DNA of 64,000 bases from Alphaproteobacteria bacterium (lineage in GTDB: Bacteria > Pseudomonadota > Alphaproteobacteria > Bin95): contig CBDBGH010000003.1 in the NCBI GenBank assembly GCA_965205265.1, forward strand, positions 864,001 through 928,000. The letters run 5' to 3'. The notes beneath the pieces were generated by a model. That model did no database searches. It saw only the letters and a list, made by a program, of their open reading frames with translations, and was not told the origin of the DNA. This document shows, one piece after another, positions 31,284-31,599 of this stretch. The position numbers and the translations under genes were made by a program. How positions within the stretch are numbered: position 1 is the first letter of the stretch; each line of letters opens with the position of its first letter.

Positions 31284-31445
31284 GTCCCTTCCTTGCAAAT
31301 GCGGTCTCGCAGAGCGGACCAAGCGACTGTTCGGGTTCAGGGGAACAGCGGACGGGGAACCATGCTCCCCCGCGGTCTTCGACACCTGGGCCGGTTCGGT
31401 CTCCCGTCCGCTTCCGTGGCCGCGACTATAGCCGCAACAACGAAC
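31284..31445 (-). ncRNA. Putative IS110 bridge RNA
   Basis: 5' hairpin plus two large internal loops carrying AACCGGCCC/GGGGGAG (target) and ACAGTCGCT/TGCAAG (donor) segments that match the flanks and ends; RNA boundaries are estimates. Confidence 0.85.
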
Positions 31446-31599
31446 CGCCGAGATACAAGCGCCGGTTGCGGTCCCCCGTTGCGGCGCGGGCCATGTCGAT
31501 TGCTTTCTTGCGCAAGCGTCTGGAGCCGCTTCTAACCTGCGCTCGAATTCAGCATGATTGTTCCGCCGCGCCCGTAGCGGTTTCTACAAGGAGCCTGCG

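Follow-up and report, generated by a model that had tools for sequence, protein, structure and literature searches.

The window analysed here, a 64-kb stretch of DNA from an alphaproteobacterium (contig CBDBGH010000003.1 of assembly GCA_965205265.1), carries an insertion sequence (IS) of the IS110 group whose left end has the layout of a bridge RNA of the kind described for IS621 of E. coli. All coordinates are those of the 64-kb window, the element being read on the minus strand; the genome amounts to 5.7 Mb in 3 contigs. Between two CT dinucleotides, the cores, lie a 176-nt non-coding left end (31459-31284), a 310-residue reading frame opening with an ATG at 31283, and a right end of 16 nt. 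Long terminal inverted repeats are absent on direct reading, and the inversion around the core is limited to ACA...TGT. At the left boundary (31467-31450) the sequence reads ...GCAACCGGCG-CT-TGTATCTCGG..., and at the right boundary (30345-30324) ...CAACACAGTCG-CT-CCCCCGGTT.... The guide strings and positions listed in an initial annotation of the window were all re-located on this strand. The genome contains exactly two copies of the element, 100% identical over 1,126 bp and set in unrelated flanks; the copy in the window is termed copy A and the other copy B. The boundary features and the gene are as follows, X5 being a public DNA run.

30334..31459, minus strand: whole IS including both CT cores, 1,126 bp (net insertion 1,124 bp); ends exact at the two identical copies, and a contig from run X5 joins 30333 to 31458.
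31458..31459, minus strand: left CT core, by direct reading; at copy B, CT is the sole sequence common to the left and right junctions.
30334..30335, minus strand: right CT core, by direct reading and comparison with copy B.
31460..31467, minus strand: left target of copy A, AACCGGCG; 8/9 agreement with the left target guide, counting the core C, and unchanged in the X5 empty allele.
30329..30333, minus strand: right target, CCCCC; exact complement of the right target guide, with the same five bases beside copy B.
30336..30342, minus strand: left donor, ACAGTCG, at the very end of the element; direct reading and match to the left donor guide.
31453..31457, minus strand: right donor, TGTAT, the first bases after the core; direct reading.
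30351..31283, minus strand: recombinase gene, 310 amino acids plus stop; matches in Pfam, NCBIfam and the IS621 structure.

The two copies define the ends of the element. Copy A occupies the site AACCGGCG-CT-CCCCCGG, and copy B (G000:C3:4157646-4158771; locus L001 1501-2626) the site GCGAGGCC-CT-CCCCCGC, with CCCCCGCAAGCGGGAGAGGGG on its right side. Identity between the copies stops on the left at the first CT and extends on the right six bases into the flank (CCCCCG). CT stands at both junctions of both copies, and the empty allele has a single CT and lacks exactly 1,124 bp. This allele was found in run X5, where one contig of 895 nt passes from 30333 directly onto 31458, skipping the 1,124 bp; the empty site AACCGGCG-CT-CCCCC that had been reconstructed in the initial annotation is thus present as such in public data, with four letters at the joint (AGCG, plus strand) that fit either side. 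Runs X3, X6 and X7 have loose ends that equal the copy B flanks. In X7 the two junctions of copy A are spanned as well, and X3 gave no cover of the copy A flanks. Because X5 has the empty site and the other public runs have junctions or flanks, the element is polymorphic (occupied or empty) among related strains or populations. The X5 allele already carries the G that mismatches the left target guide. The mismatch therefore predates the insertion, as the claim that one guide mismatch was tolerated at insertion had implied, and mutation after insertion was rejected as its source. An empty copy A site was not found by synteny within the genus, where the left flank is conserved only from about 31590 outward, and for the right flank the related genomes offered nothing but paralogues at about 70% identity. 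For copy B synteny gave no empty site; its flanks are repeats present at many places.

The gene product belongs to the IS110 family of recombinases. The list of open reading frames gives a longer, GTG-started frame for it, and relatives align from the ATG at 31283. Pfam recognises DEDD_Tnp_IS110 (PF01548; residues 6-146, E = 5.2e-23) and Transposase_20 (PF02371; residues 190-273, E = 1.9e-20), and the NCBIfam model NF033542, 'IS110 family RNA-guided transposase', scores 220.9 bits (cut-off 140). The protein thus has the two-domain plan of the group, an N-terminal RuvC-like DEDD domain followed by a C-terminal Tnp domain with the catalytic serine. Among solved structures its best matches are IS621 (chain 8wt6; E = 7.7e-41, residues 4-307) and ISCro4 (PDB 9t56; E = 4.2e-40, residues 3-307). 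D9, E53, D95, D98 and S234-G235 lie opposite D11, E60, D102, D105 and S241-G242 of IS621, counted by hand on the printed alignment with a PDB chain offset of two residues; these IS621 residues form the composite active site according to the structural paper (Hiraizumi et al. 2024), and all five catalytic residues are kept. With its open frame, its retained catalytic residues and its GC-rich target (GGCC-CT-CCCCC), the element appears to be what had been proposed, an intact orthologue with a GC-rich specificity of its own.

The left end contains the following features, in 5' to 3' order of the RNA.

31415..31442, minus strand: 5' stem-loop of the bridge RNA; minimum-energy fold, and a hairpin forms in 64/64 related left ends.
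31403..31412, minus strand: 5' arm of the target-loop closing stem, AGCGGACGGG (10 bp); fold and RNAalifold, 12/14 helix pairs changed on both sides.
31387..31396, minus strand: left target guide, AACCGGCCC(A), with AACCGGCCC at 31396-31388; same sense as the left target.
31374..31386, minus strand: target-loop inner hairpin, GGTGTCGAAGACC; fold, RNAalifold, pair counts and covariance model.
31365..31371, minus strand: right target guide, GGGGGAG; complement of CT plus CCCCC, exact at both copies.
31363..31364, minus strand: handshake guide of the target loop, CA; its C could form a pair with the G at donor position 7, a role taken from IS621.
31347..31356, minus strand: 3' arm of the target-loop closing stem, CCCGTCCGCT; fold, RNAalifold and pair counts.
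31321..31330, minus strand: left donor guide, ACAGTCGCTT, that is ACAGTCGCT(T); identical to the right end of the element plus core.
31303..31320, minus strand: donor-loop inner hairpin; RNAalifold, helix 4, 3 pairs changed on both sides.
31292..31300, minus strand: right donor guide, ATTTGCAAG, which includes TGCAAG (31297-31292); CAAG pairs with the left-end CTTG.
31290..31291, minus strand: donor-loop handshake guide, GA; the G faces target position 7.

The structure was assessed on relatives gathered in a scan of one genome per species, which gave 80 related loci with recombinases 61-93% identical to that of the window. A recognisable left end was present at 72 of these loci (8 without) and a right end at 74 (6 without), and most of the related elements are 1,126 bp long. 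Once L071 had been excluded (its apparent left end is 272 nt), the alignment comprised 63 distinct left ends plus the window. All 64 begin with CTTGTAT or CTTGCAT, the same string having served as the search motif that defined these ends. The 5' hairpin has at least 8 pairs in all 64, formed by differing sequences (median z = -2.53). RNAalifold recovered the stem that closes loop 1, another short stem, and the inner hairpin of each loop, with 14 of 29 pairs changed on both sides, and the fold of the single sequence contains the 5' hairpin and the 10-bp stem. When a hand-written structure was counted on about 50 distinct, more distant relatives, 96.5% of cells were paired against 85.6% in shuffles (0/500 reach the observed value), falling to 32-51% when partners were slid by 1-3 columns, and 15 of its 26 pairs had changed on both sides. 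A covariance model was built from 51 relatives, leaving out the window, nine loci with at least 72% recombinase identity (L008, L009, L016, L017, L018, L020, L021, L028, L063) and three with long insertions (L069, L078, L083). This independent model, the check that had been proposed for the left end, gave one match in the window, at 31414-31284 on the minus strand (124.2 bits, E = 3.4e-27), the next best scoring 11.6 bits, and over the whole genome it found only the two copies of the element. Each feature of the IS621-type architecture claimed for the locus that sequence can address (protein, layout, stems, guides, covariance model) was found.

The guides covary with the flanks across the same clade. 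The variable parts of the alignment are the 9-10 nt after the second stem, where the left target guide lies, and the 7 nt before GC/stem, where the right target guide lies. At copy A the target guides match 8/9 on the left and 7/7 on the right, and at copy B 5/9 and 7/7, with CCCCC after the core at both of these independent copies. Among 61 insertions, right-flank positions +1 to +5 are the complement of the guide in 60, 56, 60, 53 and 57 cases, and all five agree in 45. Positions +6 and +7 agree in 16 and 9 of the 61, which is the level of chance, and the right target guide is therefore the core plus five bases; a guide extending to +6, as the G after CCCCC at both copies might suggest, was rejected on the same count. 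For 49 distinct guide-flank pairs the right side agreed at 4.65 of 5 positions against 2.46 (standard deviation 0.14) in permutations, and on the left side the seven bases before CT, taken in a common register, gave a mean of 4.25/7 against 2.68; 0 of 10,000 permutations reached either value, figures that overstate independence, as the loci are kin to one another. Within the window itself, ACAGTCGCT is found twice, in the guide and in the right end, where shuffles average 0.21 occurrences. Allowing one mismatch at most, AACCGGCCC has 29 occurrences over 128,000 strand positions, or about 2e-4 per position, and one of these occurrences abuts the left end of the element exactly.

On the donor side, the left donor guide and the right end of the relatives agree at position 3 in 63 of 65 cases (A/A 52, G/G 11) and at position 5 in all 65 (T/T 54, C/C 11). 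The right donor guide had been read as TGCAAG pairing contiguously with CTTGTA through one G-T wobble. The columns concerned, 5 and 197, are indeed pairable in 64/64 sequences (UG 58, UA 4, CG 2). In IS621, however, this guide is reported to pair in two separate blocks, A157-U158 with donor positions 14-13 and C162-G165 with 11-8. Set against CTTGTAT, ATTTGCAAG agrees with this scheme at every position named, and it fits the contiguous reading equally well. The wobble may therefore not be a real pair.

The closest set of relatives, at alphaproteobacterial loci L009-L012 and L024, has a recombinase 93% identical to that of the window, a length of 1,126 bp, the same scaffold and the same donor ends, and differs in its guides. 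Six of the 25 left-end columns that differ are consecutive guide positions (73-78), so that the left guide is changed at six consecutive positions (CTAGCACCC); the right guide is changed at one (GGGAGAG), and the other 19 differences are spread over about 170 columns of the left end. The flanks of these relatives read ...GCAC-CT-CTCC(C/T), in line with their guides. A change of guide on a similar scaffold reads as the expected signature of guide turnover. Seven copies of an element 91% identical in DNA occur in the same-genus genome G005 (locus L112 and six other places) and probably belong to the same family as L009-L012 and L024. None of 40 related genomes holds the element above 91% identity, and plasmid records gave only relatives at 60-80% identity.

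On this evidence the element is very probably an intact and recently mobile member of the IS110 group that works like IS621. A DEDD/Ser recombinase of 310 residues would be guided by a bridge RNA of about 150-175 nt made from the left end. Loop 1 of the RNA would hold the target guides, AACCGGCCC in the sense of the left target and GGGGGAG as the complement of CT plus CCCCC, and loop 2 the donor guides, ACAGTCGCT, equal to the right end, and ATTTGCAAG, the complement of the left-end CTTG(T)AT. All four guides would overlap the CT core, the presumed site of strand exchange. The element would presumably leave as a circle, and the joining of its ends would place TTGACC 17 nt from TATCTC, creating a promoter for RNA and recombinase; the circle could then enter ...GGC(C/G)-CT-CCCCC sites. 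The anatomy and boundaries, the occupied and empty alleles, the two identical copies and the covariation of both structure and guides are direct observations; we infer the transcription, RNA-protein binding, circle and catalysis of this scheme by homology. Systems of this kind were described in 2024, and the element adds an apparently new member to them.

The two candidate promoter boxes lie at opposite ends of the integrated element.

31450..31455, minus strand: TATCTC, putative -10 box of a promoter completed only at the junction of right and left ends in the circle; relatives and analogy with IS621.
30349..30354, minus strand: TTGACC, putative -35 box in the right end, overlapping the TGA stop; joining of the ends would set it 17 nt from the -10 box.

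TTGACN stands at this same fixed distance from the right end in 72/74 relatives, and most left ends have a TATC-type hexamer at the -10 position, TATCTC itself in 38/72. For IS621, the circle junction is reported to rebuild a promoter upstream of the bridge RNA and integrated copies to rely on weak read-through, and by this analogy the joined ends would act as promoter for RNA and recombinase here.

Besides the kinship of the loci already mentioned, several observations weigh against this reading. No RNA run is listed for the element, so that neither transcripts and their ends nor the circle junction could be observed; the contigs of the public DNA runs, which cannot show rare circles, likewise gave no junction of this kind. 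Judged by the E. coli consensus the -10 box is poor, and a simple scan for promoters brought up no site in the integrated copy. Taken alone, the left-end sequence does not fold with unusual energy (z = -0.59, with 57 of 200 shuffles folding as well or better), and support for the structure was therefore taken from covariation and not from energy. The left target guide fits its sites only when moved to register +1, which brings the pairing one base closer to the inner hairpin than is usual among the relatives, and at copy B it matches only 4/7. Finally, target position 7 of copy A is a G, which is absent from 71/71 related sites and leaves the handshake G unpaired; it could instead pair with the handshake C of its own target loop, an arrangement that blocks strand exchange in IS621.

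The register deserves a fuller account. In the usual layout of the relatives (register 0) the guide consists of seven target bases, CT and one base before the inner hairpin, and this gives the best fit at 50/69 sites. Register -1 fits L008, L016 and L020-L023, whose literal CT comes one base earlier. The window guide, AACCGGC-CC-A, matches copy A at 6/7 in register +1 against 3/7 in register 0, and copy B at 4/7 against 2/7; L025 likewise fits register +1, at 6/7. In register +1 the guide matches only the C of the core, and in the relatives, too, the second core position is often not T.

The single mismatch of copy A is target position 7. In IS621, positions 6-7 are reported to pair with the handshake bases of the other loop after strand exchange, and pairing with the handshake bases of their own loop blocks the reaction. 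The clade follows a matching pattern: the donor-loop handshake base is G at 68/71 related sites, where it faces C at target position 7 at 64/71 (A faces T at 2), and the first handshake base of the target loop is C in the left-end rows of 63/63 relatives, facing a G at donor position 7 in 65/65 right ends. Copy B, with C at target position 7, pairs with the handshake G and conforms.

These irregularities bear on how the sites were chosen. There is no perfect AACCGGCC-CT-CCCCC site in the genome and only five other sites with one mismatch, so copy A took one of the six best sites available. Copy B is one of about 15 GGCC-CT-CCCCC sites, of which 14 remain. The expectation that other copies would lie at guide-matching sites was borne out at copy B for CT-CCCCC (7/7) and only in part for the left target (4/7), and two scans of metagenome contigs with the target loop yielded no further sites for the same guides. 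One could suppose that the bridge RNA is genuine and that both insertions are off-target half-matches, driven mainly by the right target guide and the core; the preferred left target would then be AACCGGC-CT in register 0, and copy A would have one extra base before the core. We consider this improbable, though it is the best of the alternatives. Register 0 is indeed the best fit at 50/69 related sites, the right half is perfect and the left half imperfect at both copies, and a 2026 preprint reports IS621 insertions in which only one arm and the core match. The copy A site, ACCGGCG-CT, also agrees with the donor, ACAGTCG-CT, at 7/9 positions, with CGCT in common, and three genomic repeats, ACCCGGC-CT-CCCCCGCAAGCGG, are one mismatch from the register-0 ideal. 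Those three near-perfect sites are, however, unoccupied. Copy A matches at 6/7 in register +1 (8/9 with the flanking A and core C), for which chance is about 2e-4 per position, the matching bases of copy B (GGCC) directly adjoin the core in that register too, and the register varies in the clade, with L025 at +1 (6/7) and others at -1. The half-match reading was therefore kept as an alternative for the choice of site and not for the nature of the element.

It is far less probable that the element is a fossil whose guide matches record a past insertion and which can no longer move. Only two copies in 5.7 Mb, no RNA run listed for the element and no promoter-like site in the integrated form would suit such a fossil. 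Against this, the two copies are identical over 1,126 bp, occupied and empty sites segregate between public runs, the 310-residue frame is open with all catalytic residues, the stems and guides are intact, and an integrated form without a promoter is reported as normal for IS621.

That the left end is merely a 5' untranslated leader or promoter region, with coincidental guide-like matches, is very improbable. The ordinary folding energy and the lack of an Rfam family at gathering score are compatible with such a leader, but not the guide-flank covariation of the clade (0/10,000 permutations), the compensatory changes of stem pairs, the 9-mer that recurs exactly in the right end where 0.21 occurrences are expected, or the concentration in the guide of the differences from the near relative. 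Least probable of all is an IS1111-type element with a seekRNA encoded downstream of the transposase: the protein superfamily domains are the same, but the right end is only 16 nt past the stop and the structured RNA lies upstream, and according to Durrant et al. the IS110 group has long left and short right ends with short subterminal repeats and IS1111 the reverse.

Searches with Rfam found no bridge-RNA family and nothing at gathering score over the left end. The sX15 model (RF02234) gave 29.8 bits, against a gathering score of 55, at 31277-31428 on the plus strand, opposite to the RNA. This match is most likely due to chance; 0/17 relatives match at E <= 0.01, and sX15 of Xanthomonas lies upstream of an IS3-family transposase.

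Several related left ends depart from the common layout. At L007, L013, L014 and L015, which carry the 93%-related element, the left end is replaced by unrelated sequence, with partial or whole loss of the target loop; the point of replacement lies variously before the loop-1 stem, in the left target guide or in the inner hairpin, and L014 and L015 share their upstream sequence. At L078 a block, GGGTCATGA, around the start codon occurs as three tandem copies (about 1480-1503), so that the right donor guide is followed by three ATGs in phase. At L069 the ribosome-binding site is separated from the donor loop by a GC-rich insertion of 24 nt, CCTGCCCCGGCGCAGGCCGGGGAC, that resembles a hairpin. 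At L036 1233-1307 a fragment of a group II intron (Rfam, 37.5 bits, just below gathering) ends 18 nt before the left end of that locus, and ALIL pseudoknots (Rfam, 113 bits) lie near related elements at L038 907-1023 and L064 2875-2991. In the genome studied here, short stretches on the 193-kb contig C1 (C1:141694-141762 and C1:102060-102183; loci L005 and L006) are 68-75% identical to the recombinase gene, which suggests further IS110-family genes, distant ones that the covariance model misses.

Copy A sits between the end of a gene of the xanthine/uracil permease family (stop at 30325, 8 nt away) and the start of a gamma-glutamyltranspeptidase gene (31558), and neither reading frame is interrupted. 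The transpeptidase gene is conserved at 84-90% in most of 16 same-genus genomes (81% in G001). The 130 bp at 31460-31590 and the permease side, 28559-30333, have no syntenic counterpart in those genomes, and this side of the locus may be strain-specific DNA. Copy B lies among clustered short intergenic repeats of the CCCGCAAGCGGG hairpin type (30 motif copies), which are also found elsewhere in the genome and in the genus.

A further feature lies within the recombinase gene.

31180..31213, no strand assigned: perfect 34-nt palindrome, AGGCCTTTGCCGTCGCG followed by its reverse complement; codons 24-35, seen as a self-match on the opposite strand.

The palindrome, 30-40 nt long in this clade, lies about 70 nt into the gene, and perfect arms of at least 10 nt occur at the same place in 24 of 67 distinct relatives. 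The arms change in a compensating way even as amino acids are altered (TTT/AAA to TTC/GAA, Lys to Glu). In an in-frame alignment of 63 sequences, 84% of the palindrome cells were paired; shuffles gave 77.6% and slid partners 31-46%. Changes on both sides were found for 10 of 15 pairs, with 58 double-change cells against 18.4 expected (0/500). No description of it was found in a literature search or in a term search of the main text of Durrant et al. The palindrome could be a functional nucleic-acid element, possibly an RNA hairpin that sets the 3' end of the bridge RNA or its amount relative to the recombinase message, or else possibly a DNA hairpin used by a single-stranded circle.

We put forward only tentatively that the spacing between left guide and core is not fixed and varies by one base either way among close relatives, the window element using +1 and having tolerated a G at handshake position 7. 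Together with an intragenic palindrome that is possibly functional, this would make two features perhaps beyond the description of IS621.

In other respects the likeness to IS621 (Durrant et al. 2024; Hiraizumi et al. 2024) is close: the order of domains, the catalytic D, E, D, D and S-G, the CT core, a left-end RNA with 5' hairpin, target loop and donor loop, four guides overlapping the core, the handshake positions, a position in the right end for the -35 box and in the left for the -10 box (both putative here), and the letters named for donor pairing (A-U ... C..G against C..G.AT). The window protein is nonetheless distant (E = 7.7e-41). Its right target guide has 7 nt (core plus five) in contrast to 4 nt in IS621, its target is GC-rich (GGCC-CT-CCCCC), its left guide lies one base nearer the inner hairpin, and it has a natural site with G at position 7, in an alphaproteobacterial host of 68% G+C. 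ISMno7 of Methylobacterium nodulans, named in a plasmid annotation, is IS110-like and its DNA aligned over 80% of the query, at only 65.8% identity; the ISCro4 transposase, the second solved relative, is likened by sequence match only. The IS1111 group with its seekRNA shares the recombinase superfamily and, as described, the RNA-guided principle, with the RNA in the long right end there and in the left end here.

For genome annotation this is an ordinary find, one more IS110 element, of which three details, the guide register, the G at the handshake position and the intragenic palindrome, are of specialist interest. As a compact orthologue of 310 residues with a 7-nt right guide and a GC-rich target, it may help where the AT-richer preference or the short right guide of IS621 limits specificity. 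Its natural sites show tolerance of a handshake mismatch and of a 4/7 left half, which bears on the off-target rules of bridge editors. Thousands of bridge RNAs have been predicted, and covariation has been analysed over 5,511 target pairs and 2,201 donor pairs (Durrant et al. 2024); the element described here is a complete natural example of bridge-RNA recombination with unusually full comparative support, from two identical copies, an empty allele in an independent DNA run and about 60 covarying relatives.

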